This document shows, piece by piece, positions 31,387-56,339 of a DNA stretch of 64,000 nt. Numbering within the stretch: position 1 is the first letter of the stretch; every line of letters starts with the position of its first letter. Position numbers and translations under genes: made by a program. Location: the NCBI GenBank assembly GCA_013166775.1, contig JABLTJ010000003.1, positions 1 to 64,000 of the forward strand. The letters are read 5' to 3'. The notes under the pieces are model-generated. The model saw only the letters and a list, made by a program, of their open reading frames with translations. It searched no databases and had not been told where the DNA came from. This DNA comes from Promethearchaeati archaeon. Lineage in GTDB: Archaea > Asgardarchaeota > Heimdallarchaeia > Heimdallarchaeales > Heimdallarchaeaceae.

Positions 31387-31468
31387 TGGTTTAACTGATT
31401 TTTTGGGTGATAAAAATATTTTCCAATAAACTATATTATTTGAAAAACATTGAAAAATAGAGATAAAA

Positions 31469-36765: not shown

Positions 36766-36845
36766 GAAATTGCTTTGAAATTTCGAATAAATAAAAGTTT
36801 CCCAAAGATACGTAACATTAACAAATGTGAAATTCTATATTTATA

Positions 36846-37982: not shown

Positions 37983-38362
37983 AGATCGATTTTATAAAAA
38001 TGGCTTAAGCAAGATTTTTTGCAATCACTATTTCCAAAACCAATAATTGGAATAAGTTCCTTAAATTTCTCAAGCTTTCTGGAGATTAAACATTCCGATT
38101 TTTCATTAGGAAAAATAACAACACCGTAAAATGTGCAGTTTTCAGTACATGTGACTTGATCGATGTGCCAGTGCTGTTTCTTGCTTCTTCGGAGGTGTCG
38201 ATGAATTCTAGATGAAAGACCTCCTGCACCAAAAGCACTACCTACATAAATGTAGAATCCTGTTTGAAGTGTAAGAATCCTTTCTTTTAATCTAATTTCC
38301 AAGTTATTTGTTAATTCCAAATAGAGAAGATAGGTACCATAAAGGTCTTGTGTGAATTCAAG
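37979..38362 (-). CDS. GIY-YIG (Uri superfamily, DUF123) endonuclease
   Basis: GTYLL (upstream of the ORF-track start 38320), GFYIYVGSA, RIHRH, HWHID, EC, GFGNSDC...SH. Start codon uncertain. Confidence 0.85.
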   Translation of the reverse strand, partial: LEFTQDLYGTYLLYLELTNNLEIRLKERILTLQTGFYIYVGSAFGAGGLSSRIHRHLRRSKKQHWHIDQVTCTENCTFYGVVIFPNEKSECLISRKLEKFKELIPIIGFGNSDCKKSCLSHFYKIDL

Positions 38363-38382
38363 AACTGCTCCTCGTAGAATAT

Positions 38383-39417: not shown

Positions 39418-39524
39418 TATGAATTTATCTCAGTCTAATCCTTAATAATATTTTGTAAATAAACTACTACTACTGCGAGAATTAAGAAAGAGTTTAAATT
39501 ATACGAAGTTTAAAACTAAGATTG

Positions 39525-40421: not shown

Positions 40422-40502
40422 CAATTCAGTTTTAAAGCTGATTGGGAAGTTTTATAATTGTTTTACCTTCCTTTTAGATAGAATTTGGATTAAGTGTAAA
40501 AA

Positions 40503-41483: not shown

Positions 41484-41533
41484 TCAGACAAATAAATATT
41501 AATAGAATCTTCTCTTATTTTCTTGCGTTAATA

Positions 41534-42247
41534 ATGAGCTTTCTACTTCCTTTTAAAGAGCGATATGAGAAAAAATCTCTCTCTCCTATAGCGATGACTA
41601 TTACAGTTTTTCTTTCTGTTATTCTTATGATTGTCAGTGAAGATTTTCTATCAATAGTTTTCATCTATGTGCTCACATCCCTTTTTTTTCTGCTACTTGG
41701 AGCATCTTTTTTAAGAACAATAAAATTAGTTTCAGCAGCAGCATTACTTATTTTTTTCCTCGGACTCCCAAGTTTATTCTTGGAAAATGGACTGGAAAGA
41801 GCAGGTTTCATTTGGATGCGAGGTATTTTATCTGCTTCATTAATTACTCTATATTCTTCAACAATTACTATGCAGGAATTTGCACAAAGCTTGAGAAGTT
41901 TGTTCTTCCCAAATCTTATTGTTACAATTATTGTTTTGATTCTTCGTTATACACCATTACTATACCAACAAGGAGCAGAAATCAGAACAGCACAAGAATT
42001 AAGAGGTATCTCACAATCTAATAGGAAACGAAGATTCAATGCAGTAGTATCCTTATTAGGAGGAACTTTAATTCGTTCTGTATATAGGGGTGGAGAAATT
42101 TATGAGGCGATGCTTGTTAGAGGATTGGAAAGTATAAAAATCGTCAGAAGAGGTTCAATAAAACCCTTGGATCCTTTCATTATGGTCATCTTTACTGTTG
42201 TTTTAAGTTTATTATCAGGAGGAATTTTATCATGCATCATGAAATAG
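41534..42247 (+). CDS. nikQ: ECF transporter T component (CbiQ/NikQ)
   Basis: TM helices, LRY, AQELRG and AMLVRG motifs. Confidence 0.85.
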   Translation: MSFLLPFKERYEKKSLSPIAMTITVFLSVILMIVSEDFLSIVFIYVLTSLFFLLLGASFLRTIKLVSAAALLIFFLGLPSLFLENGLERAGFIWMRGILSASLITLYSSTITMQEFAQSLRSLFFPNLIVTIIVLILRYTPLLYQQGAEIRTAQELRGISQSNRKRRFNAVVSLLGGTLIRSVYRGGEIYEAMLVRGLESIKIVRRGSIKPLDPFIMVIFTVVLSLLSGGILSCIMK

Positions 42248-42951
42248 AATTTAAAGAAGTTGTTTTTGAATATCCAGAGAAGAAATTTGGTTTATACAAT
42301 ATCACATTCAATATAGGCATTGGAACAAAATTTGCAGTTTGTGGAAGAAATGGAGCTGGAAAAACAACTTTACTTAGAATTTTGATGGGTTTAGAGGAAC
42401 ATCAAGCTGGTAACATTAAAGTTCAAGAATTAACATTAAACCGTGAAAATATAAAAGAAGTAAGAAAACGAATTGGTTTTGTTTTTCAAAACCCTGATTC
42501 ACAAGTTTTCTCTGCGAGTGTATATGAAGATGTTGCATTTGGACCAAGAAATTTGGGATTAGAAGAAGAAGAAGTGGAAAAGAGAGTTGAAGAAGCTTTG
42601 AAGAGTGTTGATTTATTGGATTGTACTCACGAATCACCGTTTCGATTATCCTTTGGTCAACGTAAAAGAGTCGCTATCGCAGGTGTACTGTCAATGGATC
42701 CATCTATAATAATTCTAGATGAACCATTCTCAAATCTAGATTATCCTACAAGAACTTCCTTAAAAAAACTTCTAGAAAACTCTGTTCTTAAAAGAGGAAA
42801 AACAATTATATTCACAACACATTATAGAAAGTTAATAAACGAATGGGCAGACAGTGTACTTTTCTTAGATGCGGGTAAAATCCTTTATCACGGAAATGTA
42901 GAAGATTTATCTATAATAGACGAAGCGGATAGATTCTTAGGACCTTTCTAA
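42232..42951 (+). CDS. nikO: ECF transporter ATPase (CbiO/NikO)
   Basis: GRNGAGKTT, FQNPD, LSFGQRKRVAIAG, LDEP. Confidence 0.9.
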   Translation: MHHEIEFKEVVFEYPEKKFGLYNITFNIGIGTKFAVCGRNGAGKTTLLRILMGLEEHQAGNIKVQELTLNRENIKEVRKRIGFVFQNPDSQVFSASVYEDVAFGPRNLGLEEEEVEKRVEEALKSVDLLDCTHESPFRLSFGQRKRVAIAGVLSMDPSIIILDEPFSNLDYPTRTSLKKLLENSVLKRGKTIIFTTHYRKLINEWADSVLFLDAGKILYHGNVEDLSIIDEADRFLGPF

Positions 42952-43364
42952 AGTATTAGTTTAGAATATTTATCTACTACTTCAAGATACATTTCATTAC
43001 ATTTTTCTTCAGATAATTCCATTATCCCTTTTTCCATTCTTGCTGAAATTCTACTTACTAGTTCTTTCAGTTTATCTCGAAATTCAATAATTGGAAGAGT
43101 ATAGTACAAATATTTGTAACCACCTCTTTCTAGACTGGTCTTTTCTTTTTTTACAGCTCCAACATCCATTAATCTTTGAATTGATCTAACAATTGATGCT
43201 CTGTCTTTTCTGATTATTTCAGTGATTCCTTTAACATCTACTGGTTTGTTATGATTAATACATGCAAGTACTTCCAATTCATTTTCAGACAGTCCAAAAA
43301 GAGCTCTAACTATATCAAAGCAAGTTATGTCATCAGAATCAAAAGAAGAAAGAGGGAATGACAT
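42948..43364 (-). CDS. Archaeal winged-HTH transcriptional regulator (TrmB-like / COG3355-type)
   Basis: FGLSENE...KDRASIVRSIQRL..G.V.K...GGYKYLY; last gene of the sulfur-relay operon; contains three Cys. Confidence 0.8.
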   Translation of the reverse strand: MSFPLSSFDSDDITCFDIVRALFGLSENELEVLACINHNKPVDVKGITEIIRKDRASIVRSIQRLMDVGAVKKEKTSLERGGYKYLYYTLPIIEFRDKLKELVSRISARMEKGIMELSEEKCNEMYLEVVDKYSKLIL

Positions 43365-43375
43365 TTTTTTCACCT

Positions 43376-43750
43376 CTAGAAAGTATATACAACATCAGCT
43401 TCGAGGGATTCAGTTACTAAGAACATTCCTCCGACTATATCGTCAACTTCCTCAATGAAATCTTCACGTTTTAAATTATACATCTCAAGTACTGGACTGC
43501 AGACGTAAATTTTAGCACCTACTTCTTTAGCTTCACGTAAAGTTTCAATGTAGGGATTCTTGCCTTCCATTGGAATTAAGTTTTCAGGAACTCCTTTCTT
43601 AAGTAGTAATCCAGCTGACATAGTATAAATAATTGTTACTTCTGCATCAAGCATAGCTGCTAGTGATGCAAGATGTAAGGGGGGCTCAAGTCTTTCTTTG
43701 AATTCCTTTCCATGAGTTAATACGAAAACTATTTTCTGTTCAGGCATCAT
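43376..43750 (-). CDS. DsrE/DsrF-like sulfur-relay protein
   Basis: FVLTHG, AAMLDAEV, GAKIYVCS conserved Cys, ADVVYTF. Confidence 0.82.
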   Translation of the reverse strand: MMPEQKIVFVLTHGKEFKERLEPPLHLASLAAMLDAEVTIIYTMSAGLLLKKGVPENLIPMEGKNPYIETLREAKEVGAKIYVCSPVLEMYNLKREDFIEEVDDIVGGMFLVTESLEADVVYTF

Positions 43751-43756
43751 TACCAC

Positions 43757-44230
43757 CTAGAAGTATAATGTGATATCTGCTTCTGATGCAAATTCTAAGA
43801 AGGTTGCAGCTCCACCAACTTCACATTCATCAATCAGCTGCTTTCTTTTGATTTTCATTACATCCATTGTCATTTGACAAGCAATGAGCTTTACACCAGA
43901 TTCAATAGAAATGTCCATCAATTCTTGTAATTTTGCAACATTAGCACCTTTCATCCAGCTTTTCATCATTGCTGTTGCCATATCAGTCATACCAGGAATC
44001 ATTCCTACAATTTGTGGTATTGGCATTGGCATAGCTGTTTGACCTACGGGAGTTACTTTGAGTTTGTTTAGTTTTTTCTTCTTCAACATATTTAATCCAA
44101 AGAATGTGAAGAATATACCTACTTCATAATCCATTGCTGCTGCAGTAGTGGCTAAGATTAATGGTGGGTATGCACCAGCAATATCTGCTTTTGAAGCTAT
44201 CATAGCTATTCGTTTTTTCTTTTCCGACAT
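43757..44230 (-). CDS. DsrE2 (DsrE/DsrF/DrsH-like) sulfurtransferase
   Basis: YPPLILATTAAAM, FFTFFGL, GVKLIACQMTMDVM, GAATFL. Confidence 0.88.
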   Translation of the reverse strand: MSEKKKRIAMIASKADIAGAYPPLILATTAAAMDYEVGIFFTFFGLNMLKKKKLNKLKVTPVGQTAMPMPIPQIVGMIPGMTDMATAMMKSWMKGANVAKLQELMDISIESGVKLIACQMTMDVMKIKRKQLIDECEVGGAATFLEFASEADITLYF

Positions 44231-44239
44231 TTTTTTCAC

Positions 44240-44479
44240 CTATTTAATTCTTTTAATGATATAGCGGTATACTCCGCCTTCTTCCGAGTTAGCAATAAGT
44301 TCATTTCCGGTAGATCTGGTCCATGCTTGGAAATCCGCAACTGATCCAGGATCTGTTGAGAAAACTTCAATATGCTCCCCTAATGAAATTTCCATAATTG
44401 CTTTCTTTGTTTTAAGGATTGGAAGAGGACAGCTTAACCCCTTTGCATTAAGAGTTTTAGCAATTTTTGTATCACTCAT
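44240..44479 (-). CDS. tusA: TusA/SirA sulfur carrier
   Basis: GLSCPLP motif, TDPGS..DF.AW. Confidence 0.92.
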   Translation of the reverse strand: MSDTKIAKTLNAKGLSCPLPILKTKKAIMEISLGEHIEVFSTDPGSVADFQAWTRSTGNELIANSEEGGVYRYIIKRIK

Positions 44480-44490
44480 TTTTTTCACCT

Positions 44491-45636
44491 TTATAATCGT
44501 CCTTTAATCAAGAATTTGAAATAAGCAAATTTGAACGCCTTCTTGAATAATCCAAACAAAAGAGTTGAATTTAATCCGTATTTTTTTGGAGGGTAGTTAT
44601 AACTGAAATGCAATAACATAGATTTTTTGAAGGATGTTAATATGAAACAGATTGTTAATCCCTTGTATTTAGCTTTGGGAGGTTTCCCTTTAAGTTCTGA
44701 AATTAAGTTTTTCACTAAAATATTAGAAGAGAAGTGCGAAACAGTTCCAGATTTTGAAACTGGTAAATTTGTTCCATCTCCGATTGCATAGATGTTGTCA
44801 TGTTCGTTGTGTTTCATTGTATATCTATCAGTAGTAATCCATCCTTCTCTATCACCCAATCCAGAGTCTTTTATGACATCTTGACCTTCATGAGGAGGTA
44901 TTATTATAAGACTTTCATATCCTATTTCTTCTCCTTCAAGAGATAGTACTTTGTTGTTTTCATTATCAATTGTTTCGAAATTGAAAAATGGAGTGAACTT
45001 GATGTTTCTTTTAGCAAAAAGTTTCTCTACTTTCTTAGCAGGTTCAGCCATTGTGAAAGCTCTTGATAATGGATAGAGAAATCTGATTGTTGATTTGTGT
45101 CTTATTCCTCTCTTACGTAGGTATTTATCTAATAAAAATGCGAATTCAATTGGAGTAGGTGGGCATTTGTAAGGTACGGTTGTCGGAGTAATAACAATAG
45201 TTCCTCCATCAAACTCCATAAGTTTTTCTTTTAGATGTTCAACTCCATCTTTGGTATAAAATTCGCAAACATTATCAGTTTGACAATATGCATCAAGTTT
45301 CTCTTGTGCCATTCTTGCTCCTGTTGCTAAGATAAGAAAATCGTATAGGATATTTTTCCCATTTTCTATTGTTACTATGTTTTTTTCAGGGTCTATCTTT
45401 GTAGCAATGTTTTTAATCCAGTTTACTTCTTTACTCAGTAATTTAGAAATTGGCTTTAAGAGATTAGAAATTGGTTTATCTTGAAAAACCCAAAATAAGT
45501 ACTCTGGTTCATAGATATTTTCTTCCTTTGGCTCAATCAAAGTGATTTTGACTTTTTTTCTATTTATTTTACGTGCTAAATGATTAGCTGTAGCTAAACC
45601 AGAAAAACCTCCACCTATTATAACTATATTTTTCAT
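44491..45636 (-). CDS. Sulfide:quinone oxidoreductase-like FAD-dependent oxidoreductase
   Basis: IIGGGFSG, YDFLILATG, YKCPPTPIE, YAIGD, SKSG, Y.G...CF; both redox cysteines are present. Confidence 0.8.
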   Translation of the reverse strand: MKNIVIIGGGFSGLATANHLARKINRKKVKITLIEPKEENIYEPEYLFWVFQDKPISNLLKPISKLLSKEVNWIKNIATKIDPEKNIVTIENGKNILYDFLILATGARMAQEKLDAYCQTDNVCEFYTKDGVEHLKEKLMEFDGGTIVITPTTVPYKCPPTPIEFAFLLDKYLRKRGIRHKSTIRFLYPLSRAFTMAEPAKKVEKLFAKRNIKFTPFFNFETIDNENNKVLSLEGEEIGYESLIIIPPHEGQDVIKDSGLGDREGWITTDRYTMKHNEHDNIYAIGDGTNLPVSKSGTVSHFSSNILVKNLISELKGKPPKAKYKGLTICFILTSFKKSMLLHFSYNYPPKKYGLNSTLLFGLFKKAFKFAYFKFLIKGRL

Positions 45637-45646
45637 TTTAGTTCCT

Positions 45647-45886
45647 TCAGTGTAGTTTTTTTACAATATAACGATCGAAACCGTCTTCATTGATTAGTGC
45701 AGTTAATTCATGTTTTGCTTTATCAACCCAAGCGGGAACATCTACTCTTGTTCCCTCATCAGAGCTTAGCAAAGCAATGAATTCTCCAACTTCTGCTTGA
45801 CGTATTGCTTTAATCAGTTCCATCATTGGTCCTGGGCAAAACGCCCCTCTTGCATCTACTTCTATAGCTATTTCATAATCAGTCAT
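45647..45886 (-). CDS. tusA: TusA/SirA sulfur carrier (second copy)
   Basis: DARGAFCPGP motif, SSDEG...DVPAW. Confidence 0.9.
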   Translation of the reverse strand: MTDYEIAIEVDARGAFCPGPMMELIKAIRQAEVGEFIALLSSDEGTRVDVPAWVDKAKHELTALINEDGFDRYIVKKLH

Positions 45887-45903
45887 TTATTCACCTTATT
45901 GTT

Positions 45904-45946
45904 CGGTTGTGACGAGTTTAACATAATTGCTCACAACCGTATAAAA
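45904..45946 (-). promoter_or_regulatory. TATA box plus inverted-repeat operator of the tusA-sqr-dsrE operon
   Basis: CGGTTGTGA (45904-45912) - N18 - TCACAACCG (45931-45939) abuts a minus-strand TTTTATA (45940-45946). Confidence 0.6.
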
Positions 45947-46172
45947 GTATTTGGTTTTTCTTATTTTCTCCATTTTAAAAAAACAACGTTATTAATAATA
46001 TATTTAATGAAGTACTTTGCTTTTATTGGTTCAAAATTTTAATTACAATATAAAATAATTATTTCATAAGAAGTGAATATACTAAATAGGAACAAGATGA
46101 AACAAGTGAAATTAACGAATTTTGTAATAATGTTTCAATAGTTCTTTTATTAGTTCTCATATAAATTAAGAT

Positions 46173-46628
46173 CTATTTGACTATTTTCAGAATTAGTGCT
46201 GTTATTGGAAATGCTAGAAGAAGGACCCCTCCAATAATAGTTGGGATTCCAGCTTTAACAAGACCATATTCAGTAATCAGCAATATACCTATTGTGATAG
46301 CTACAACACTTGTAAAAGTAAGAAACACTACAAGTCTTTTATTTAATAAAGTTTCTTTCAAATTTTCCTTGCTAAAAGCTCTATATTCTGGATGTTCCTT
46401 AACAAACTCTCTGTGTTCCTTAATTTTTCTTATCACCCAAATAACTAAAGGAATCAAAAGAAGTATTCCAACACCCGAGAGAATTAAACCTAATAGAAGC
46501 TCTTCCATAACTAAAAACATTATTCCAAGACCTATGGGTAATGCAATTAAGCCAATAAGAAGGAAACCAAAAAAAATCTTAGCGAAAGTAATACCAAAAT
46601 CTCTAGGTACAGGTATGGGAATTACCAT
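46173..46628 (-). CDS. Membrane protein (two TM hairpins)
   Basis: Four hydrophobic segments separated by a charged loop. Confidence 0.6.
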   Translation of the reverse strand: MVIPIPVPRDFGITFAKIFFGFLLIGLIALPIGLGIMFLVMEELLLGLILSGVGILLLIPLVIWVIRKIKEHREFVKEHPEYRAFSKENLKETLLNKRLVVFLTFTSVVAITIGILLITEYGLVKAGIPTIIGGVLLLAFPITALILKIVK

Positions 46629-46803
46629 ATTGAATCCTTCGAGTTTTAGAATTAAATTATTTAAACTTTTTTACATTTCTGAAACCTTTTCTTTAAACAT
46701 TATGTCTTTTTGCATATTTAGCTATATGAAATAGATATTGAAGATTCTTCTAGTCAAGCGTTTTGGTCTGTAAAAATGCAATAGTTTCATTTTCGGGAAT
46801 ATC

Positions 46804-46901
46804 TTTTTATATATGTATAGGCTTCTGCGTATGATACGGTTGTCGAAAAGTTCGTTTCTAAACTGCAATAAAACGAACTCTAAGTAATAACCGGTGAGAA
46901 T
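46804..46901 (+). promoter_or_regulatory. hdr-mvh promoter and leader
   Basis: TTTTTATATA at 46804-46813, ATACGGTTGT at 46834-46843, inverted repeat AGTTCGTTT/AAACGAACT (46849-46879), and GGTGA RBS. Confidence 0.5.
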
Positions 46902-47594
46902 ATGATAGCAGTATGGATTAGTTTAATAGTTACTGCCATCTTGGTAGCTGGCTCAATTTCTTTACGTATTATTTCTAAAGAGGGAGAGGAAGGAAGAATC
47001 ATCAGACCTAATGAGAAATTATCTGATGAATTCATGGAGGATTTAGCGCTAGTACCTGGTGGTGATAAAATAAAAGAATGCATACAATGTGGCATTTGTT
47101 CTGCTAGTTGCCCTGTTTCTTTTGCTATGGATTATACTCCTAGACAAATATGGGAACTTCTGAGATCTGGGCAATTAAAAAAAGCACTAAATAGTCACAC
47201 TGTATGGTTGTGCTCTTCTTGTTACAAATGTGCTGTAAGATGTTCGACTGGCATCCCCTTTACTGACGTAATGTATGGATTAAAGCGCTTAGGTAAAGAG
47301 AAGAAATTGAATCAAAAGGGTATAAGTGGACCAATCTGGGCAAGTACTTTTCTTAACAATGTTCGTCGTTATGATCGAATCACTGATTTATTTGTAATGA
47401 TTATGTTTATGGTTAAGAAACAACCCTTCAGAATACTTTCAATCATTCCAGAATCTTGGGGAATGTTCACTAAAGGACGAGTTCCGTTTAAGAATCTCAT
47501 GATGCTTGTTCCTAAAACAATCAAATCTTTTTTCACTAAGAGCGATGTCAAGAAGATGATGAAATGGATAGATAAAAACGTGGAGATTAGTTAA
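46902..47594 (+). CDS. hdrC: Heterodisulfide reductase subunit C with N-terminal TM helix
   Basis: CIQCGICSASCP, MDYTPRQ, WLCSSCYKCAVRC; hydrophobic residues ~2-24. Confidence 0.9.
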   Translation: MIAVWISLIVTAILVAGSISLRIISKEGEEGRIIRPNEKLSDEFMEDLALVPGGDKIKECIQCGICSASCPVSFAMDYTPRQIWELLRSGQLKKALNSHTVWLCSSCYKCAVRCSTGIPFTDVMYGLKRLGKEKKLNQKGISGPIWASTFLNNVRRYDRITDLFVMIMFMVKKQPFRILSIIPESWGMFTKGRVPFKNLMMLVPKTIKSFFTKSDVKKMMKWIDKNVEIS

Positions 47595-48491
47595 ATGACT
47601 GAAGTAGAAAAAAAGGGAGGATATACTTACTTTCCCGGATGTGCTCTAGAAGGAATTCAAGAACCTTACAAAAAATCTACAGAAGCAGTTGCTAAAGAAT
47701 TAGGGATTGTCTTAAACGAGCTTAAATCATGGAACTGTTGTGGAACTCCCTCCATCATTGGTGTAGATGAGATTAAGGCTCTAGCTTTGTCTGCTAGAAA
47801 TCTTGCCTTAGCAGCAAAAGAAGGAGATCAAATTGTAAGTCCCTGTAACACTTGTTTTGGTACTCTGAAAAAAGTGAATAGATACATGGAATATAATAAA
47901 GAAATTTACTCTGCAATAAACGGTTCCCTGAATGCTGCGGGATTATCTTATGAACCTAACACTGTAGAAGTAAGACATTTTGTAGATATCTTAGTAAATG
48001 ATTATGGAATAGAAGAGATTAGGAAAAGAGTCAAAAGACCTCTTACAGGTTTCCGTGTAGTTCCATTTTATGGATGTCATTTTTCTAGACCTTTTGGTGA
48101 ACATGATGATGTAGAAAATCCAAGAAAAATGGATGATTTAATCAAAATTTCTGGAGCAGAATGGGTAGATTATCCAATGAAATTTACCTGTTGCGGAGCT
48201 ACTCTTCCAGTAACTGATCCAAAGATTGGTTATCGACTTATACATGAGATTCTCAGATCAGCGAAGGAAGTAAAAGCTGATTTCATAATTACATCGTGTC
48301 CTCTCTGTCAAACTAACTTAGAAATGTTTCAGAGAGTAGCAGGAAATATGTATGGTGGCAAGCACCACATTCCTGTTTTATATGTTACTCAATTAGTTGG
48401 ATATGCACTTGGGCTTTCAGTAAAGGAACTGATGATAGATAAAACTCTGGTCAAGCCAAAAAGACTTATTGAAAAAAGTGAGGTGGTCTAA
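47595..48491 (+). CDS. hdrB: Heterodisulfide reductase subunit B
   Basis: Two CCG domains: YFPGC...WNCCG...PCNTC and FYGC...TCCG...CPLCQ.NLE. Confidence 0.93.
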   Translation: MTEVEKKGGYTYFPGCALEGIQEPYKKSTEAVAKELGIVLNELKSWNCCGTPSIIGVDEIKALALSARNLALAAKEGDQIVSPCNTCFGTLKKVNRYMEYNKEIYSAINGSLNAAGLSYEPNTVEVRHFVDILVNDYGIEEIRKRVKRPLTGFRVVPFYGCHFSRPFGEHDDVENPRKMDDLIKISGAEWVDYPMKFTCCGATLPVTDPKIGYRLIHEILRSAKEVKADFIITSCPLCQTNLEMFQRVAGNMYGGKHHIPVLYVTQLVGYALGLSVKELMIDKTLVKPKRLIEKSEVV

Positions 48492-49774
48492 TGACATCTG
48501 AAGCAGATCCAAGAATTGGAGTATTTGTGTGTAAATGTGGAAAAAACATTGCAGCAAAAGTCGCAGTTAATGAAGTAGCAGAATATGCAAAAACATTAGA
48601 TAATGTAGAGTTTAGTCAAGTAAATACTTTTACCTGTTCAGCAGTAGGACAAAATGCTATCAAGGATGCCGTAAAGGAACACAATCTAGATAGAGTAGTT
48701 GTAGCGAGTTGCTCACCTACTATGCACGAAAGCACTTTTCAAGCTGCTACTGAAGAAGCTGGAATAAATAGATATCAATTCCAAATGGCAAACATAAGAG
48801 AATTCTCTTCATGGGTTACCAAAGATCCAGCTGAAGCTACAAGCAAAGCTAAGAGAATAGTAACAGGTGCCGTAAGAAGAGTCGCATTTCATGAACCACT
48901 TGAAGAAGTAATCGTTCCAGTTAATCCAAATACGTTAGTCATTGGTGGTGGAATCGCAGGAATTTCTGCTGCATTAAAAATTGCAGATGCTGGCCATAAA
49001 GTTATCTTAGTAGAAAAAGAACCTTCTATAGGTGGAAGGATGGCTCAACTAGATAAAACTTTTCCAACATTGGATTGTGCAGCATGTATTCTATCACCTC
49101 GAATGGTAGATGTTGGAAAGCATCCAAACATAGAGATGATGGCTTATTCTGAAGTCGTAGCTGTTGATGGTTACATAGGAAATTTCAATGCTAAAATAAA
49201 GAACAAAGCTAAGTCAGTAGATGAAGAAAAGTGTACTAGTTGTGGAGATTGTTGGGAAAACTGTCCCGTTAGATATACTGCTTATACAGAACCAGCAAAA
49301 ATAGTTCCTGCATTGCTTTATGATGAGAAAACCTTCTTAGATAAAATCATAACCAAGTACAAAGATAGACGAGGAGCTATTATGCCAGTTCTTGAGGCAA
49401 TTAATAGTGAATACCGTTATCTTCCTGAAGAGAGCTTGAAATATGTTGCAGTACAAATGGATTATCCTCTCAGTTCTATTTATAGAATTGCTACATTCTA
49501 CAATGCATACAGCTTAGAACCAAGAGGAGATCATCTGATAAGCGTCTGTATGGGAACAACATGTCATGTTAAAGGAGCTCCAAGGCTTGTTGAAAGGCTA
49601 AAGAGCGAGTTGAAAATTGATATTGGTGAGACTACAGATGACGGTAAATTTACTTTAGAAACAGTTCGATGTTTGGGCTGTTGTAGCTTAGCTCCGGTGA
49701 TAACGATAGATGGTGAAGCTTTCGGTAATATGAAACCGAGTAGAATTCCAAGGGTGCTTGATAAATATGAGTGA
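48491..49774 (+). CDS. hdrA: HdrA N-terminal half fused to a NuoE/HydC [2Fe-2S] domain
   Basis: RIGVFVCKCG.NI, ASCSP, ANIRE, IGGGIAG, IGGRMAQLDKTFPTLDCAACIL, CTSCGDCWENCPV; then ATFY..Y..EPRG, VCMGTTCHVKG, CLGCCSLAP. Confidence 0.9.
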   Translation: MTSEADPRIGVFVCKCGKNIAAKVAVNEVAEYAKTLDNVEFSQVNTFTCSAVGQNAIKDAVKEHNLDRVVVASCSPTMHESTFQAATEEAGINRYQFQMANIREFSSWVTKDPAEATSKAKRIVTGAVRRVAFHEPLEEVIVPVNPNTLVIGGGIAGISAALKIADAGHKVILVEKEPSIGGRMAQLDKTFPTLDCAACILSPRMVDVGKHPNIEMMAYSEVVAVDGYIGNFNAKIKNKAKSVDEEKCTSCGDCWENCPVRYTAYTEPAKIVPALLYDEKTFLDKIITKYKDRRGAIMPVLEAINSEYRYLPEESLKYVAVQMDYPLSSIYRIATFYNAYSLEPRGDHLISVCMGTTCHVKGAPRLVERLKSELKIDIGETTDDGKFTLETVRCLGCCSLAPVITIDGEAFGNMKPSRIPRVLDKYE

Positions 49775-51674
49775 TATAAAACCAGCTGATATTAATATTC
49801 TGAGAGCTAAGGGAGAAGAATCTCTTTATCCAGATAGACCTAAAATTGGAATTAGCATGGCTTCATGCGGATTAGCTGCTGGTGCTGGGAAAATTTTGGA
49901 AACAATTGAAGGAGAATTGAAGAACCTAGATCTTGATTGGATTGTTACAAAAACAGGATGTCCTGGTTTTTGCCAAAAAGAACCTCTATTATATTATCAT
50001 GCACCTGGAAAAGAGAAAATTTACTTCGGTGAATTAACGGAGAAGAAAGCAAAAGATTTAGTCAAAGAGTTATCCGAAAATACAGTAGATAGAGATTTTG
50101 CTACATGGAAAATTATGTCTGATGTTACAATTGATGATAAGACATTGTTCATTAGTGAAGAAACAGAAATCGAAGATATTCCATTATACCAAGAATATGA
50201 TTTTTTTAAAAAACAACATAAAATTGCTCTTAGAAACTGTGGTTTCATTGATCCTCAAAGTATAGAGGAATATATCGCAAAAGGAGGGTATGCAGCTTTC
50301 CAAAAAGCTTTGAAAATGAAACCAGACGAGGTTATTGATTTCATTAAGAAATCAGGACTACGTGGAAGAGGTGGAGGAGGATTCCCTACGGGATTAAAGT
50401 GGGAACTCTGTTCCAAAGAAGATTCAGATATTAAGTATATTATCTGTAACGCAGATGAAGGAGATCCTGGAGCATATATGGATAGAAGTATACTTGAGGG
50501 TGATCCTCACTCTATAATCGAAGGGATGCTGATTGGTGCCTATGGTATCGGATCTAATGAAGGCTATATCTATGTAAGAGCTGAATATCCATTAGCAATA
50601 GAATTGCTAGATATTGCAGTTCAACAAGCTCGTGAAAATGGTTTTCTTGGAGCAAATATCCTCAATTCAGGTTTTAGTTTTGATATTAATCTTGCATATG
50701 GAGCAGGTGCTTTTGTTTGTGGTGAAGAGACAGCTCTAATAGCATCAATAGAAGGTAGACCAGTTGAACCAAGAATAAGACCTCCCTTTCCATCACAATC
50801 AGGTTTATGGGAGAAACCTACCAACATTAACAATGTAGAAACTTGGGCTAATGTACCCCCAATTATTCTGAAAGGACATGATTGGTATTCCTCTTTAGGA
50901 ACAGAAACAAGTAAGGGAACAAAAGTATTTTCTCTAGTTGGTAAAATTAACAACACAGGACTAGTGGAAGTTCCTATGGGAATTACTTTGCGAGAAATCA
51001 TCTACGATGTAGGTGGAGGTATAATCGATAATAAGAAATTCAAAGCTATTCAAACAGGTGGTCCATCAGGTGGATGCCTTCCTGAAAGCCATATTGATCT
51101 ACCAGTGGATTATGAGAGTCTCAAGGAAGCTGGGTCTATAATGGGGTCAGGAGGAATGATTGTTGTTGATGAAGACACTTGCATTGTGGACCTTGCGAAA
51201 TTCTTTATAGATTTTACTAGAGATGAATCTTGTGGTAAATGTGTTTCTTGTCGTGATGGATTAGATGCATGTCACGAAATTCTGAATAAAATAACTGAAG
51301 GAAAATCTGCTTTAGAAGACCTAGATTACTTAGAAGAGCTTGGACAATCAATTGTTGATTTCTCAATGTGCGGTTTAGGAACCACAGCTCCAAATCCTGT
51401 TCTGACAACTCTACGATATTTCAAAGATGAATATATAGCTCATATCGAGAAAAAAGAATGCTCAGCTAAAGTTTGCAAAGCGTTAATTACCTATGAAATA
51501 ATCAAAGATAATTGTGTTGGATGCCAGGCATGTGCTAGACTTTGTCCAGAAAATGCAATAAAAGGGCAGAAAGATAAAGTCCACAAGATTAACCAAGAAC
51601 TCTGTATAAAATGCGGAGTCTGTTTTGATACGTGTAGATACGATGCAATTCTAATAAGGAGTGGTGATAAATAA
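49767..51674 (+). CDS. HydB/NuoF-type FMN/NAD-binding subunit with C-terminal 2x[4Fe-4S]
   Basis: SGLRGRGGGGFPTG, CNADEGDPGAYMDR, GAFVCGEETAL, GGPSGG, ESCGKCVSCR..C, and two C-terminal CxxCxxCxxxC motifs. Confidence 0.92.
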   Translation: MSDIKPADINILRAKGEESLYPDRPKIGISMASCGLAAGAGKILETIEGELKNLDLDWIVTKTGCPGFCQKEPLLYYHAPGKEKIYFGELTEKKAKDLVKELSENTVDRDFATWKIMSDVTIDDKTLFISEETEIEDIPLYQEYDFFKKQHKIALRNCGFIDPQSIEEYIAKGGYAAFQKALKMKPDEVIDFIKKSGLRGRGGGGFPTGLKWELCSKEDSDIKYIICNADEGDPGAYMDRSILEGDPHSIIEGMLIGAYGIGSNEGYIYVRAEYPLAIELLDIAVQQARENGFLGANILNSGFSFDINLAYGAGAFVCGEETALIASIEGRPVEPRIRPPFPSQSGLWEKPTNINNVETWANVPPIILKGHDWYSSLGTETSKGTKVFSLVGKINNTGLVEVPMGITLREIIYDVGGGIIDNKKFKAIQTGGPSGGCLPESHIDLPVDYESLKEAGSIMGSGGMIVVDEDTCIVDLAKFFIDFTRDESCGKCVSCRDGLDACHEILNKITEGKSALEDLDYLEELGQSIVDFSMCGLGTTAPNPVLTTLRYFKDEYIAHIEKKECSAKVCKALITYEIIKDNCVGCQACARLCPENAIKGQKDKVHKINQELCIKCGVCFDTCRYDAILIRSGDK

Positions 51675-53449
51675 TGGTGAATATAACTATAAACGATCAA
51701 GAATATGATATTGAAGAAGGAAAAACAATTCTTGAAGCTGCTCAAGCAATGGGATTGGAAATACCGACTCTGTGCTATCATAAAGCTCTTAGTCCGTATG
51801 GTGCTTGTCGTCTATGTACTGTAGAAATTGAACTCAACGGAAGAACAATGTATCAAGCTTCATGCCAATATCTCGTTGAAGAAGGTATGAACATTCAAAC
51901 TGAGAGTGAACGAGTTGTTAATGGCCGTAAGAAGATGATTGAACTTCTTCTAGCAAGAGCTCCGGAAGCAGAAGATATTTTGGATCTTGCTTATAAATAT
52001 GGTGTCAAAGATACAAGATTCTTAAAGGAATTTGATGACGTCTGTATTTTATGTGGTCTTTGTATTCGTGTCTGTCATGATAGAATGGGTTTCAAAGCTA
52101 TTGAATTCATTAACCGTGGAATCGAAAGAAAAGTCAGCCTACCCTTTGAAGATTTCCATGAAGTTTGCAGAACTTGTGGTTCCTGTTCAACATACTGCCC
52201 AACAGGTGCTAAAGCAGTGCAACTAGAAAATCTCACACATCATACTCCAAGACCAATATTATCAGAATTTGATCAAGGATTAGCAACTAGACCAGCAGTT
52301 TATACACCATTTCCACAGGCTGTACCAAAAATCCCAGTAATTGACAGAAATAATTGCATACACTTCCAGACTGGTGAATGTAAGATTTGTCAAGATGTAT
52401 GTGAACCTGATGCTATAAATTATGAACAAGAAGATGAAATTGTAGAAAGGGAAGTAGGAGCAATCGTCGTTACTACAGGTTTTGATCCTTTTGATCCTAA
52501 CAGACTACCTCAATATGGTTATGGAAAATATCCTAATGTAATAACTTCATTAGAATTTGAGAGAATCTCAAGTGCAAGTGGTCCAACAGAAGGTGAAATC
52601 ATTTTCCCAGGAGTTACTGAAATAAAAAGTGCTGCAATTCTCCATTGTATAGGTAGTAGAGATGAAAACACAAACAGATACTGTTCCAGACTCTGTTGTA
52701 TGAATGCCCTCAAAGCTGCGAATCTTATAAGAGATAAATTACCAGATTCTCATGTTTATGAATTTTATATAGACATTAGAGCTGCAGGTAAAGGGTATGA
52801 GGAATATTATCAAAAGATGCTTAGAAGTGATATACGAATTATAAGAGGAAAAGTAGCTGAAATCACCAACATTCCAGATTTGCCTGAAGATGAAGGACGG
52901 TTAACTGTAGTAGCAGAAGACACTCTTCTTGGAGCAATTTTGAGAGTACCAGTTGATCTTGTGATTCTAATGGTTGGTATTGAACCCAAAAAAGATGCTA
53001 GAGATTTAGCCCATATACTCCATTTACCATGTACTGAAGAAGGATTCTATAATGAAAAGCATCCAAAGCTAGCACCAACTGAAACTGTTATAGAAGGAAT
53101 CCATGTAGCTGGTGCATGTCAATTTCCAAAGGATGTACCTGATTCTGTAGCGCAAGGAGAATCTGCTGCAGCTGCTGTTCTTTCAAAGATTGCAAGAGGA
53201 GAATATATTACGGAACCAACGAAAGCTGAAATAGTGGACGATCATTGTTCTGGATGTAGAAACTGTATAGGATTATGCCCCTATTTGGCAATAAGCTTTG
53301 ATGAGGAAGAGGAAATTGCAAAGATAGATTCAGCTCTTTGCCAAGGATGTGGAGTCTGTGTAGCCAGTTGTCCATCTGGAGCAATAATTCACAGAGGTTA
53401 TACTGACAAACAGATCTTTGCGGAAATTGAAGGAGTACTAGAAAGGTGA
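51674..53449 (+). CDS. hdrA: NuoG/HydA-type Fe-S domain fused to HdrA C-terminal half
   Basis: IPTLC..GACRLC..SC, CILCGLCIRVC, CRTCGSCSTYCP; then EFDQGL..R.AVY.PFPQAVP, LEFER, HCIGSRD, YCSRLCCMNALK, DIRA.GKGYEEYY, E.HPKL, GACQFPKD, and a C-terminal ferredoxin. Confidence 0.9.
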   Translation: MVNITINDQEYDIEEGKTILEAAQAMGLEIPTLCYHKALSPYGACRLCTVEIELNGRTMYQASCQYLVEEGMNIQTESERVVNGRKKMIELLLARAPEAEDILDLAYKYGVKDTRFLKEFDDVCILCGLCIRVCHDRMGFKAIEFINRGIERKVSLPFEDFHEVCRTCGSCSTYCPTGAKAVQLENLTHHTPRPILSEFDQGLATRPAVYTPFPQAVPKIPVIDRNNCIHFQTGECKICQDVCEPDAINYEQEDEIVEREVGAIVVTTGFDPFDPNRLPQYGYGKYPNVITSLEFERISSASGPTEGEIIFPGVTEIKSAAILHCIGSRDENTNRYCSRLCCMNALKAANLIRDKLPDSHVYEFYIDIRAAGKGYEEYYQKMLRSDIRIIRGKVAEITNIPDLPEDEGRLTVVAEDTLLGAILRVPVDLVILMVGIEPKKDARDLAHILHLPCTEEGFYNEKHPKLAPTETVIEGIHVAGACQFPKDVPDSVAQGESAAAAVLSKIARGEYITEPTKAEIVDDHCSGCRNCIGLCPYLAISFDEEEEIAKIDSALCQGCGVCVASCPSGAIIHRGYTDKQIFAEIEGVLER

Positions 53450-53454
53450 TGAAA

Positions 53455-53931
53455 ATGGTAGTAACAGATGAAAAAACTATTGAAAATACTGATTGGGAAC
53501 CGAGGATTGTAGGATTCTTATGCCGGTGGTGTTCATATGCTGGTGCAGATCTTGCAGGTATAAGTAGACTAGATTACCCACCAAATTCCATCTTTATTAA
53601 AGTACCTTGCACAGGACGTGTCGATCCTACTTTCGTATTGAAAGCTTTTGCTGATGGAGCTGATGCAGTATTCATATCTGGATGCCATCTAGGCGATTGT
53701 CATTATATCGAAGGAAATTACAAAACTATGCGACGATTTGAAATACTCAAAGAAACACTAAAGCAATTGGGTATACATGAGAGAAGGTTTCAACTGACAT
53801 GGATATCAGCATCTGAAGCCCAGAAATTAAAAGAATTTCTCACAAGTATGACATCTTCAATAAAAGAATTAGGACCTATACAATTGCCGATTTTAGCACC
53901 TTTACAAAAGGAGGATAAACAAGATGACTGA
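53455..53931 (+). CDS. mvhD: MvhD [2Fe-2S] adaptor subunit
   Basis: CRWCSYAGADLAG, VPCTGRVD, GCHLGDCHY, WISASE. Confidence 0.94.
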   Translation: MVVTDEKTIENTDWEPRIVGFLCRWCSYAGADLAGISRLDYPPNSIFIKVPCTGRVDPTFVLKAFADGADAVFISGCHLGDCHYIEGNYKTMRRFEILKETLKQLGIHERRFQLTWISASEAQKLKEFLTSMTSSIKELGPIQLPILAPLQKEDKQDD

Positions 53932-54880
53932 GAAACTCAAACTAGCCTTCTATTGGGCAGCGAGTTGTGGTGGCTGTGAAGTAGCTATCTTGGATATTGA
54001 TGAAAAAGTCCTTGATGTAGTAGCAATCGCTGATATTGTGTTCTGGCCAGTAGCCATTGATATTAAATACAATGATGTAAGAGCTATGGACGACAAAAGC
54101 ATTGATGTCACCTTCTTTAATGGTTCGATAAGAACTGAAGAGAATGCTGAACTAGCTCGATTATTGAGAGCAAAATCAAAAACATTGGTTGCATTTGGTT
54201 CCTGTTCTTGCTATGGTGGAGTTATAGGTTTAGGAAATCTTTCCTCTAAAGAGGAGTTGTTACATCGAGCCTATATTACAAGTGATTCAACTGATAATCC
54301 TGAGCAGATAAAACCTCAGCTTCATTACAAGGAAGTTCATATTCCTGATGTTCTACCAGCTAATTATGCTTTGGATCAGGTTGTAGATGTTGATTATTAC
54401 TTACCAGGATGTCCACCAAAAGATACACTAGTTTGGAGTGCTATAGAAGCCATTGCTTCTGGAAATCTTCCTGCTAAGGGTGCTGTTTTAGCTCCCAATC
54501 TTACTGTATGCCATGATTGTCCTCGAGAGAAACATGATGAACGAACAATTAAGGAATTCAAAAGAGTTTATAACTTCCAACCTGATGAAACAAAATGTCT
54601 TCTGGAACAAGGTTTAATCTGTATGGGACCTGCTACACGTTCAGGTTGCGATGCTTCTTGTGTTTCTGTAAATATGCCATGTCGAGGTTGTATGGGACCA
54701 ACAGATCAAGTATTTGACCAAGGAGCTAAGATGATTTCCGTGTTAGGAGGACTAATAGATTCTGATGATCCTGAAGAAGTTAAAGAAATAGTTAGTACTA
54801 TAGTTGATCCAGTTGGAACTTTATACTATTTTGGAGTATCCAAGTCTCTAATTAAGCAAAGTGGTGTTAAAAGGAGGTAA
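53924..54880 (+). CDS. mvhG: [NiFe]-hydrogenase small subunit, group 3c
   Basis: ASCGGCE, FGSC..YGG, PGCPP, VCHDCPR, CLLEQG..CMGPAT..GC...C...NMPCRGC. Confidence 0.93.
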   Translation: MTEKLKLAFYWAASCGGCEVAILDIDEKVLDVVAIADIVFWPVAIDIKYNDVRAMDDKSIDVTFFNGSIRTEENAELARLLRAKSKTLVAFGSCSCYGGVIGLGNLSSKEELLHRAYITSDSTDNPEQIKPQLHYKEVHIPDVLPANYALDQVVDVDYYLPGCPPKDTLVWSAIEAIASGNLPAKGAVLAPNLTVCHDCPREKHDERTIKEFKRVYNFQPDETKCLLEQGLICMGPATRSGCDASCVSVNMPCRGCMGPTDQVFDQGAKMISVLGGLIDSDDPEEVKEIVSTIVDPVGTLYYFGVSKSLIKQSGVKRR

Positions 54881-54884
54881 AATA

Positions 54885-56339
54885 ATGACAGAAAAAACAG
54901 TAAAACATATTGTTATTGATCCAGTAACTCGTCTAGAAGGGCATGCCAAAATTGACATTATTCTAGATGATAAAGGAAAGATAGAAGATGTATACTTACA
55001 AGTACCAGAATTCAGAGGATTTGAAAAATTCTGTGAAGGTAGAAGAGTGGAAGAGCTTCCAAGAATAACACCAAAAATCTGTGGTGTTTGTCCTATGGCA
55101 CATCATATGGCATCTGCAAAAGCGTTAGATATGGCATTTGGGGTTGAACCAACATCAGTTGCTCATAAACTTAGAGAGCTTATGTACAATGCCTATGTAT
55201 TTGAGGATCATACACTTGCCTTCTATTTCCTACAAGCTCCAGATTTTGTAGTTGGTCCATCAGCACCTCCAGCTGAGAGGAATATTCTAGGAGTTATAGC
55301 TAAAGTAGGTGTAGATATTGGAAAGGAAGTCATAAAACATCGAGCTTATGGACAACAAATGTTACAGATTCTTACTGGAAGTAAAATCTTTCCAGCAGTT
55401 GCAATTCCAGGTGGAGTTAGCAAAGGATTATCCGAAGAAGACAGAGACAAAATGATACCTTGGGCTGAGAGTTGTGTTGAGTTTTCAAAATTTACACAAC
55501 AGTTATTGCATGATGTAGTTCTCGAAAACAAAGATTATGTAGACTTGATTCTCTCTGATACATACAATCTGAAAGCATATAATATGGGACTAGTTGATGA
55601 GAATAACAAAATCAACTTCTATGATGGACAAATTAGAGTTACATCTCCTGAAGATAAGGAATTTGTAAAATTTGAATCCAAAGATTATCTAGAACACGTT
55701 GCTGAAGTACCAATCCCACATAGTTATGTCAAACGAACTTATCTCAAGAAATTAGGTTTGGAAAATGGATTATATCGAGCTGGACCTCTAGCAAGATTGA
55801 ATGCATCAGAAGGTATGACTACACCTTTAGCACAAAAAGAATACGAGAAATTCTATAGTGTTTTAGGAGGAAAACCAGCAAATCAAACCCTAGCTTACAA
55901 TTGGGCACGCGTAATTGAACAGCTCTATGCTGCTGAAAGAGTTCTTGAATTATTGAATGATCCAGAAATTACAAGTGATGATTTCAGAACCTTAGCAACA
56001 GAAGTACCAACTGAAGGAGTCGGTGTAGTTGAAGCATGCAGAGGAACACTTTATCATCATTACAAATGTGATGAGAAAGGATTGGCTAAGGAGGTAAACC
56101 TAATTGTGGCTACAACTAATAATAAATTTGCATTAGAGAAATCAGTCGAAAAAGCTGCTAGAGGTTTAATAGAATCAGAGCAACCAGATCAAGGAATACT
56201 GAATATGGTAGAAATGTCATTCAGAGCTTATGATCCTTGTATGGCTTGTGCAACACATTCTCTGCCAGGAAAAATGCCATTGACTATCAATCTTTATGAT
56301 AAGAACAAAAATCTTTTACGTAAAATTCAAAGGAAATAA
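54885..56339 (+). CDS. mvhA: [NiFe]-hydrogenase large subunit, group 3c
   Basis: TRLEGH, RGFEKF, L1 KICGVC, L2 RAYDPCMACATH followed by a C-terminal extension. Confidence 0.94.
   Translation: MTEKTVKHIVIDPVTRLEGHAKIDIILDDKGKIEDVYLQVPEFRGFEKFCEGRRVEELPRITPKICGVCPMAHHMASAKALDMAFGVEPTSVAHKLRELMYNAYVFEDHTLAFYFLQAPDFVVGPSAPPAERNILGVIAKVGVDIGKEVIKHRAYGQQMLQILTGSKIFPAVAIPGGVSKGLSEEDRDKMIPWAESCVEFSKFTQQLLHDVVLENKDYVDLILSDTYNLKAYNMGLVDENNKINFYDGQIRVTSPEDKEFVKFESKDYLEHVAEVPIPHSYVKRTYLKKLGLENGLYRAGPLARLNASEGMTTPLAQKEYEKFYSVLGGKPANQTLAYNWARVIEQLYAAERVLELLNDPEITSDDFRTLATEVPTEGVGVVEACRGTLYHHYKCDEKGLAKEVNLIVATTNNKFALEKSVEKAARGLIESEQPDQGILNMVEMSFRAYDPCMACATHSLPGKMPLTINLYDKNKNLLRKIQRK

Follow-up and report, generated by a model that had tools for sequence, protein, structure and literature searches.

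TusA and DsrE3 carriers feed the sHdr system of sulfur oxidisers, a partnership that is established (PMC11094781), and the lipoate-binding protein LbpA and lipoate-assembly genes are associated with the sHdr cluster (PMC6067878, PMC11094781). For the Asgard archaeon Nerearchaeum marumarumayae (Promethearchaeaceae), a model has been proposed in which a group 3c hydrogenase-Hdr complex couples H2 oxidation to the reduction of TusA- and DsrE-bound persulfides (10.1101/2025.07.22.663070). Here we describe a locus in a window of 64,000 nucleotides (positions 1 to 64,000 of contig JABLTJ010000003.1, assembly GCA_013166775.1) from a Heimdallarchaeaceae archaeon, where a minus-strand sulfur-relay operon stands divergent from a plus-strand Hdr-NuoEF-Mvh cassette. 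From this linkage, a sequence-only reading of the window had proposed that TusA/DsrE persulfide may be the substrate of HdrB. Comparison with relatives leads us to favour, with modest confidence, a different account. The locus would consist of two independent modules of separate origin with probable regulatory capture, and not of a demonstrated metabolic coupling.

The window is contig C107 of a metagenome-assembled genome (MAG; G000) of 3.85 Mb and 88.7% completeness, and its close protein homologues carry Heimdallarchaeota or Heimdallarchaeaceae source labels. In what follows, W denotes the window, L113 is GCA_016839875.1, G001-G030 are genomes of relatives, and other L-numbers are fetched loci or contigs. 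Gene calls and strands come from a listing of open reading frames (ORFs) with Pfam and NCBIfam scans. Family names were refined by PDB sequence matches, the DsrE2B/DsrE3A naming following PMC11094781. These data confirm the gene content as first read, that is, tusA, sqr-like, tusA, dsrE2, dsrE and a regulator divergent from hdr-mvh with one membrane gene between. HdrA, however, was found to be split: the cassette ORFs overlap or abut in the order hdrC-hdrB-hdrA'::nuoE-nuoF-fer2::hdrA''-mvhDGA, which is not a plain hdrCBA. The sulfur operon is also tightly packed, with intergenic gaps of 0-10 nt.

The sulfur-relay operon is core to this Heimdallarchaeaceae-type genus. Of the 24 other species in the genus, 22 have its DsrE2 at 74-94% identity, and sister families within the order have it at 57-64%. 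An orthologue of the window HdrB (72%) occurs in one other genus genome only, G006, while the rest have just a 32-37% paralogue on other contigs; the orthologue thus stands in 2/25 genus genomes and in 2/399 Asgard species genomes. When the sulfur operon and its flanks were fetched from seven genus members, the operon proved to be directly divergent from the M14-peptidase/7TM/epimerase genes in G001, G016, G010 and G005, as it also is in L112, with no hdr or mvh gene between. In the window, these three genes come after mvhA. Because the cassette-free relatives have tusA directly divergent from the M14-peptidase gene, the cassette (~10 kb) is an insertion between the two, and it was inserted in the ancestor of one narrow clade. 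The outgroup families retain the sulfur genes and are missing the cassette, so a single gain is preferred over several losses by parsimony. The linkage of operon and cassette is therefore confined to one narrow clade and is not conserved. The persulfide proposal had been tied to conservation of the linkage across Asgard genomes, and on this point it fails. The multi-pass membrane protein beside the M14 peptidase and UDP-GlcNAc 2-epimerase genes (360 aa, window 58182-59264) has no Pfam family and is found there genus-wide.

Within the clade, the adjacency is present in five assemblies: W, L113 (regulator 86% identical), the P0244 contig (92%), G006 and L015. A stretch of ~200 bp is all that separates the divergent hdrC and tusA genes in L113 and the P0244 contig. 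In the window, this otherwise ~200-bp shared divergent promoter region is split by an orphan membrane ORF, which is a further insertion private to the window genome. The orphan ORF has no paralogue in the genome and is missing from L113, the P0244 contig, G006 and L015. A search of 1.84 billion representatives gave clear homologues at 60% and 42% identity and nothing else but a marginal short match; the 60% homologue sits on a 1-kb contig that is uninformative for gene context. The spot between tusA and the M14-peptidase gene has taken up different inserts in different species: in G004 (L006 6214-7983), it is filled by an unrelated 589-aa secreted or anchored repeat surface protein. The G023 contig stops just past tusA1, which puts the neighbour outside the data. 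At the other end of the sulfur operon, a CbiM-CbiQ-ABC ATPase set (Ni/Co uptake of the energy-coupling factor type, 40503-42951) is convergent with the regulator gene. It stands at the same place in G016 and the P0244 contig, is not there in G006, G001, G010, G005, G004 or L113, and is another variable insert.

The cassette has a history of its own. Relatives of its HdrB form a small Heimdall clade at 70-94% identity, and the nearest beyond it are bacterial, at 42-49%. In a quick maximum-likelihood tree with SH-aLRT support, the Heimdall clade (support 100, long stem) lies inside a bacterial radiation, outside of which fall the HdrB of a second Hdr locus of this genome (contig C76) and other Asgard HdrBs. 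The full set of nine genes recurs, in unchanged order and at 36-61% identity, on three Zixibacteria contigs, with HdrA likewise split around NuoE/NuoF. These cassettes are flanked by GTP cyclohydrolase I, PfkB and glycosyltransferase genes, and no sulfur carrier lies within 8-10 kb of any of the three. A species-genome scan gave 80 loci of nearest HdrB relatives from many phyla, mostly bacterial, each with up to 10 kb per side where the contig allows. An HdrA part is present in 78 of them, NuoF in 66 and MvhD in 61. TusA, DsrE, DsrE2, the SQR-like protein and the regulator were detected within 10 kb at 0/80 loci, by tblastn (E up to 0.01) and by hidden Markov models (HMMs) built from genus alignments (E up to 1); the HMMs recovered all positive controls. 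A NuoEF-type cassette is also found on Heimdall metagenome contigs, where its neighbour is a radical-SAM gene in L009-L012 and a downstream NUDIX gene in L013. We read the cassette as laterally acquired and of mainly bacterial type, and the locus records how nine genes of Hdr-NuoEF-Mvh type have spread laterally between bacteria and Asgard archaea. Nothing ties the thiol/disulfide substrate of the cassette to TusA/DsrE at any other cassette site.

Base composition tells little of the origin of the cassette. Its GC content is 0.36-0.38 against ~0.32, with the excess coming from codon positions 1 and 2. We dropped high GC as a mark of foreign origin, as the GC at third codon positions (GC3) is 0.19-0.31 in the cassette, level with the mean for the genome (0.232 +/- 0.029). 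The transfer was therefore either old or from a similar genome.

After its insertion, the cassette appears to have been remodelled in place. G006 and L015 encode HdrA as a single protein of 1125 aa that contains a GltD/NfnB-like NAD(P)H module (Fer4_20 and Pyr_redox_2) and resembles HdrL, and this GltD-like module occupies the HdrA position where the window has NuoE/NuoF/2Fe-2S (window 48491-53449; L001 7047-10424). Between W and G006, mvhG and mvhA are 90-91% identical, or 84-92% with their flanks included, whereas hdrC and hdrB are only 72-73% identical. Given this difference, an exchange between NuoEF and GltD-insert variants has evidently taken place at this site, in the 5' part of the cassette, as far as the identities tell. 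The window HdrB groups weakly with NuoEF variants from other sites and not with G006. The locus thus also documents in-place swapping of the NAD(P)H module of a cassette. The same two assemblies, G006 and L015, are missing sqr and have kept the cassette.

The sulfur module, in turn, occurs without Hdr. The nearest relatives of its SQR-like flavoprotein outside Heimdall-type MAGs are in Archaeoglobus, at 45% identity. Because the Archaeoglobus fulgidus cluster has the tusA-dsrE-tusA-flavoprotein core with no adjacent Hdr, this core is an autonomous unit. In A. fulgidus (L111; AE000782, 498436-515578), the gene set comprises a PALP enzyme, ThiS-like, ThiF-like, TusA, DsrE-like, TusA and SQR-like proteins, an HMP-domain protein and a PP-loop ATPase. 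The set may be a route for biosynthetic sulfur, from sulfide to thiocarboxylate, and its ThiS/ThiF context hints at sulfide activation for biosynthetic sulfur supply.

The two modules meet at their promoters. The tusA promoter bears an operator-like palindrome, CGGTTGTGA-N18-TCACAACCG, the sole such palindrome in the 3.85-Mb genome, which is kept in ten genomes as CGG[TA]TGTG ... TCA[CT]AA[CT]CG (alignment A5). In every cassette-bearing genome, its two arms stand 10 nt, or one helical turn, further apart than in genus members without the cassette. Across W, L113, G006 and L015, all the clade members with DNA available, the hdrC promoters share an invariant block of B recognition element (BRE) and TATA box, the word ACGGTTGT ~24 nt downstream and a ribosome-binding site (RBS) block, with variable stretches between. 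ACGGTTGT is a half-site, or arm, of the genus-wide tusA operator, and its orientation relative to transcription is the same in the tusA and hdrC promoters. It is not present upstream of hdrC in L009 and L013, where cassettes lie at other sites. The window holds three copies of the word, all within 1.7 kb, where 0.37 are expected, and the genome holds 21 copies. Four of these are intergenic, and two of the four are the tusA and hdrC promoters. Because the hdrC promoter has the conserved half-site of the tusA operator, the cassette would have been drawn under the same repressor, and the pattern is probably one of regulatory capture of an acquired redox module.

Three further features of these sequences were seen. 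The remaining two intergenic copies of ACGGTTGT belong to a repeated element, GGCAAGAATTACAACCGTAAA..., at C27:5220 and C93:9558. The third window copy, TACGGTTGTCG at 45174-45184, lies antisense inside sqr, is identical over 11 nt to the hdrC-promoter copy and encodes a conserved T-T-V-P; it is probably a coding coincidence, and could be an internal operator. Downstream of the hdrC promoter (window 46846-46880), a leader hairpin is found as GTTCGTTT...AACGAAC in W and L113 and as CCTAAACTAGATTTAGG in L015. Its sequence varies (in L001 too) and its inverted-repeat character is retained, as would fit a structured 5' untranslated region, which it may be.

Several observations weigh against capture of an independent module. 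The hdrC promoter has the half-site only and no palindrome. A genome-wide search with a degenerate half-site gave no further regulon member near sulfur or hdr genes, and the operator itself was assigned from sequence conservation alone. True metabolic coupling would likewise lead one to expect a shared operator, and partnerships of TusA/DsrE with Hdr are real in sHdr (PMC11094781). The adjacency has been stable in five assemblies despite the exchange of the hdr part, which could mean selection on the neighbourhood. In addition, the 88.7%-complete genome offered no other candidate for the thiol/disulfide substrate among those searched: it gave no match to DsrC, to McrA (PF02249) or to ComA (PF02679), the alternative coenzyme M (CoM) route and the coenzyme B (CoB) genes not having been searched for. 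As for an electron acceptor of the SQR-like enzyme, no match was found in the genome to MqnA/D of futalosine quinone synthesis or to a haem-copper oxidase; other quinone routes were not searched for.

Among the alternatives, pure coincidence survives best, and we consider it doubtful. In that case, the region between tusA and the M14-peptidase gene would be a permissive insertion spot, as the different insert in G004 and the orphan membrane ORF of the window genome suggest, and the shared 8-mer would have no regulatory meaning. By chance alone, about two 8-mers should be common to two regions of ~280 nt, and the single half-site at hdrC and the empty degenerate search count on this side as well. 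What speaks for a functional word is that it is exactly the conserved operator arm, that it is invariant in four diverged hdrC promoters amid varying flanks, that it is rare in the genome, and that it has one orientation relative to transcription at both promoters. With the choice of word allowed for, the probability that it is shared by chance is roughly 0.01-0.06 for one genome, to which the phylogenetic footprint adds.

The original proposal, in which Hdr-NuoEF-Mvh uses H2 and/or NADH to reduce TusA/DsrE persulfide (or the reverse) and the two operons form one pathway, seems to us improbable. It draws on the divergent operons with their ~200-bp shared promoter region in L113 and the P0244 contig, on the half-site common to the tusA and hdrC promoters and on an adjacency kept in five clade assemblies. 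It also draws on the absence of ComA, DsrC and McrA matches, on the window pair being the only stand-alone TusA genes of the genome (a rhodanese-TusA fusion is encoded on C50), on the feeding of sHdr by TusA/DsrE3 in sulfur oxidisers (PMC11094781) and on the same idea as outlined for another Asgard archaeon (10.1101/2025.07.22.663070). Against it stand the other genus members examined, in none of which a cassette adjoins the sulfur operon, and the sister families, which keep the operon and have no cassette. No sulfur carrier lies near the 80 nearest cassette loci or the three Zixibacteria loci, Heimdall contigs with this cassette elsewhere do not have the motif, sqr was lost in G006 and L015 but the cassette was not, and the sulfur operon has a redox enzyme of its own. 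The adjacency is recent, limited to one clade and the outcome of an insertion at a variable spot, and each module is autonomous elsewhere, which takes away the main argument for a shared pathway. A complex prediction of HdrB (A1) with TusA1 (A2), run without controls, scored 0.28 against a mark of 0.32 and is counted on neither side. That the captured cassette is a cytoplasmic, HdrC-tethered H2/NADH:protein-persulfide oxidoreductase with TusA- or DsrE3A-bound sulfane sulfur as the HdrB substrate is a poor prospect on present evidence; were it true, such sulfur would be the long-sought HdrB substrate in a non-methanogen.

Under the favoured account of two modules with regulatory capture, the sulfur operon would be a self-contained sulfane-sulfur relay. 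The SQR-family flavoprotein, with its conserved Cys pair, would oxidise sulfide to cysteine persulfide. The sulfur would then pass to TusA and on to the DsrE2B/DsrE3A carriers, as their active-site Cys suggest, the purpose being likely sulfide/persulfide homeostasis or biosynthetic sulfur supply. The three-Cys winged helix-turn-helix (wHTH) protein would repress the operon via the palindrome over the tusA promoter. The cassette is predicted to encode a flavin-based complex of Hdr and [NiFe] hydrogenase, linked to NAD(H) and of mainly bacterial type, which after insertion has probably come under the repressor of the sulfur operon. A shared repressor would fit metabolic coupling, and would equally fit a redox module switched with sulfide/persulfide status. 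As for the co-regulation on which the persulfide proposal had also counted, it is not refuted: the conserved operator half-site in both promoters is in its favour, and the half-site alone at hdrC is not.

The features of the locus are collected in Table 1.

Table 1. Features of the sulfur-relay operon, the intervening region and the Hdr-NuoEF-Mvh cassette, in window coordinates (TM, transmembrane)
Feature	Position	Strand	Basis
wHTH regulator (TrmB/MarR/Lrs14-like), last operon gene, 141 aa	42948..43373	-	Pfam TrmB 1.8e-08, MarR 1.3e-05; NCBIfam Sta1/Lrs14 below cut-off
DsrE3A-like sulfur transferase, 126 aa, single invariant Cys in V-C-S-P	43376..43756	-	Pfam DsrE 9.3e-10; best PDB 3mc3_A, 2.6e-16, full length
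DsrE2B-like sulfur carrier, 160 aa, invariant Cys in I-A-C-Q/E	43757..44239	-	Pfam DrsE_2 2.5e-47; best PDB 2qs7_A
TusA, second copy, CPLP motif, invariant Cys	44240..44488	-	Pfam TusA 3.7e-22
SQR-family flavoprotein, type III-like, 381 aa, both redox Cys, basic amphipathic C-terminus	44491..45636	-	NF049943 353 bits (cut-off 525)
TusA, first copy, promoter-proximal, CPGP motif, invariant Cys	45647..45886	-	Pfam TusA 4e-17
Operator-like palindrome CGGTTGTGA-N18-TCACAACCG, abuts tusA TATA box	45904..45939	.	Sequence; 10-genome alignment
Orphan membrane ORF, 151 aa, ~4 TM helices	46173..46628	-	No Pfam or NCBIfam family
hdrC promoter: BRE/TATA block GGGAATATCTTTTTATAT (46795-46812) and ACGGTTGT (46836-46843)	46795..46843	+	Alignment of four cassette-bearing genomes
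HdrC-like 2x[4Fe-4S] subunit, N-terminal hydrophobic helix	46902..47594	+	Pfam Fer4_8, TIGR03290, partial QmoC match
HdrB, two complete CCG domains, 10 invariant Cys (alignment A1)	47595..48491	+	Pfam CCG 1.5e-29
HdrA N-part (~residues 1-260) fused to NuoE-type [2Fe-2S] domain	48491..49774	+	Pfam 2Fe-2S_thioredx 1.3e-49 and FAD Rossmann domain
NuoF/HydB-like FMN/NAD(H) subunit	49758..51674	+	Pfam Complex1_51K 2.8e-45, NADH_4Fe-4S 1.3e-28
NuoG/HydA-like N-terminal 2Fe-2S/4Fe-4S module fused to HdrA C-part	51674..53449	+	Pfam Fer2_4 4.7e-20, Fer4 domains, Pyr_redox_2
MvhD, MvhG (small subunit), MvhA-like [NiFe] large subunit	53446..56339	+	Pfam FlpD 4.5e-52, Oxidored_q6, NiFeSe_Hases

The active-site Cys of the carriers are all invariant in the aligned genus members. 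Those of the CPGP and CPLP motifs are kept in 9 homologues per TusA (8 genus genomes and the sister-family genome G030), and the Pfam scores of both TusA copies exceed the cut-off. DsrE2 reaches 182 bits against the 210 cut-off of the NF047629 equivalog, which places it at family and not at equivalog level. The SQR-like protein likewise scores below the cut-off of NF049943, a model that describes a selenoprotein subtype of type III SQR. It matches human SQOR structures over its full length (172 bits), with its KC-P-P and T-x-C motifs aligned to the catalytic Cys. It also has a GGGFSG FAD Rossmann motif at the N-terminus, and its two Cys are invariant in aligned genus members. The regulator is a member of none of the sensor families CstR, SqrR and BigR, and its homologues were found in Heimdall-labelled MAGs only. 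Its three Cys, invariant across 8 genus members, its wHTH fold and the palindrome over the tusA promoter are the features of a putative thiol/persulfide-sensing repressor.

The sequence-only reading had called HdrB methanogen-type and the hydrogenase group 3c, and each assignment stands in part. HdrB has the two-CCG architecture and aligns end to end with the methanogen HdrB of PDB 8rvu_b (175 bits). It belongs, however, to a mainly bacterial clade, and its TIGR03288 score of 200 bits is below the cut-off of 345. MvhD, MvhG and MvhA are present, but the large subunit of the hydrogenase matches the NAD-linked bifurcating NiFe-HydABCSL (7t2r_D, 406 bits) as well as it matches MvhA (5odc_F, 384 bits). 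Its nickel CxxC motifs are intact (C-G-V-C and D-P-C-M-A-C in translation). The HdrA N-part matches the first 260 aa of the unsplit HdrA encoded on C76, and residues 165-590 of the product of 51674..53449 match the remainder, which puts the split near residue 260. At the HdrC N-terminus (window 46902-46990), a hydrophobic helix and, after it, SLRIISKEGEE are conserved in the Heimdall clade (alignment A3). This helix is not in the Zixibacteria homologues nor in the second HdrC of the genome, and through it the Hdr complex may be tethered to the membrane.

The window was also said to hold no lipoate-binding protein and no CoM/CoB or mcr genes, and both statements are upheld. The genome encodes three GcvH-type proteins, on C27, C56 and C97, and none on the contig of the window. 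Two further CCG-bearing loci were considered as alternative partners of the sulfur operon, the C76 Hdr locus and an HdrD-GlcD-GcvH operon on C97, and were set aside as neither is linked to it. The C76 locus (28000-46000; L021) is a second hydrogenase/Hdr locus of G000 that is conserved in the genus. Its order is MvhG/MvhA-like, MvhD-like, Fe-S proteins, NAD-binding FlxB-like, unsplit HdrA, HycI, HdrC, HdrB, a Fer4 protein and a FAD_binding_2 flavoprotein, the last three of which resemble thiol:fumarate reductase. The C97 operon (~83400-86400; L022 7392-10431) encodes an HdrD/GlcF-like protein (Fer4 and two CCG, 398 aa), a GlcD-like FAD_binding_4 protein (470 aa) and a GcvH-type protein (145 aa). 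The latter is a lipoyl-protein candidate adjoining a CCG enzyme, in an operon unlinked to the sulfur operon, and two Arf-family GTPase genes lie directly downstream. A preprint on oxygen metabolism in Heimdallarchaeia contains nothing concerning the locus.

The HdrB substrate in many non-methanogens with Hdr-Mvh complexes is an open question, for which carrier-bound sulfur is one candidate. For assigning that substrate by gene linkage, this locus serves poorly, as its neighbourhood is recent and confined to one clade. Sister species with the same sulfur operon and without the cassette provide the natural comparison. The idea of persulfide as an HdrB substrate is not new for Asgard archaea, having been drawn in 2025 for Nerearchaeum. 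That model concerns a different Asgard class and is a genome-based proposal, with no linkage or promoter evidence in the part of the source available (10.1101/2025.07.22.663070).

The sHdr-LbpA systems with TusA/DsrE3/rhodanese (Hyphomicrobium denitrificans, Aquifex, Thioalkalivibrio) likewise place TusA/DsrE beside HdrB/HdrC/HdrA-type genes (PMC11094781, PMC6067878), and the carrier CPxP motif and single-Cys active site are common to the sHdr partners and this locus. In contrast, sHdr has two HdrC/HdrB pairs with sHdrA and sHdrH (shdrC1B1AHC2B2), while this locus has one hdrC and one hdrB. Unlike sHdr, it also has no LbpA or lipoate-maturation gene, its HdrA is split and fused to NuoE/NuoG-like parts, and a [NiFe] hydrogenase and NuoF are attached. 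Whereas sHdr is 'always accompanied' by carriers, the linkage here is lineage-specific. We therefore rejected membership in sHdr on the single HdrC/HdrB pair, the split HdrA and the lack of LbpA on the contig; of the sHdr traits compared, only the TusA/DsrE neighbours are shared. In the methanogen MvhADG-HdrABC complex (5ODC, 8RVU), HdrB, HdrC, MvhD, MvhG and MvhA all match end to end; as there, HdrB has two CCG domains, HdrC has two [4Fe-4S] motifs and MvhD/G/A are present. Instead of a single polypeptide, however, HdrA is split at ~residue 260 by the NAD(H) module. In addition, McrA and ComA were not found, the HdrB clade is mainly bacterial, and HdrC carries an N-terminal membrane helix. 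The NuoE/NuoF/HydA-like parts of the cassette match the NAD-linked type of the bifurcating hydrogenase NiFe-HydABCSL (7T2R).

For the sulfur operon, a close counterpart is the dsrE3A-dsrE2B-tusA cluster of Metallosphaera cuprina and other Sulfolobales (PMC4175335; PDB 3MC3, 2QS7), whose genes encode the same trio of carrier types in matching order. Compared with it, the Heimdall operon adds a second TusA, the SQR-family flavoprotein and the Cys-rich wHTH regulator, the neighbouring Hdr is not sHdr, and the organism seems to be an anaerobe, unlike those acidophiles that oxidise sulfur. The A. fulgidus PALP-ThiS-ThiF-TusA-DsrE-TusA-SQR-like cluster (AE000782, ~505 kb) shares the tusA-dsrE-tusA-SQR-like core, with the flavoprotein 45% identical. 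It differs in being ThiS/ThiF-linked, in having no DsrE2 and a different regulator, and in the absence of an adjacent Hdr. A functional analogue of the minus-strand operon is the sulfide-stress operon cst of Staphylococcus aureus, with the repressor CstR, the Rhod-TusA-DsrE fusion CstA, CstB and SQR. In cst, the regulator is CsoR-like where a wHTH protein stands here, the carriers are fused, a persulfide dioxygenase is present, and the host is bacterial and aerobic. The Heimdall locus has a Sulfolobales-type carrier cluster combined with an SQR-family enzyme and a Cys-rich regulator, standing beside a laterally acquired Hdr-NuoEF-Mvh cassette with which it is possibly co-regulated.

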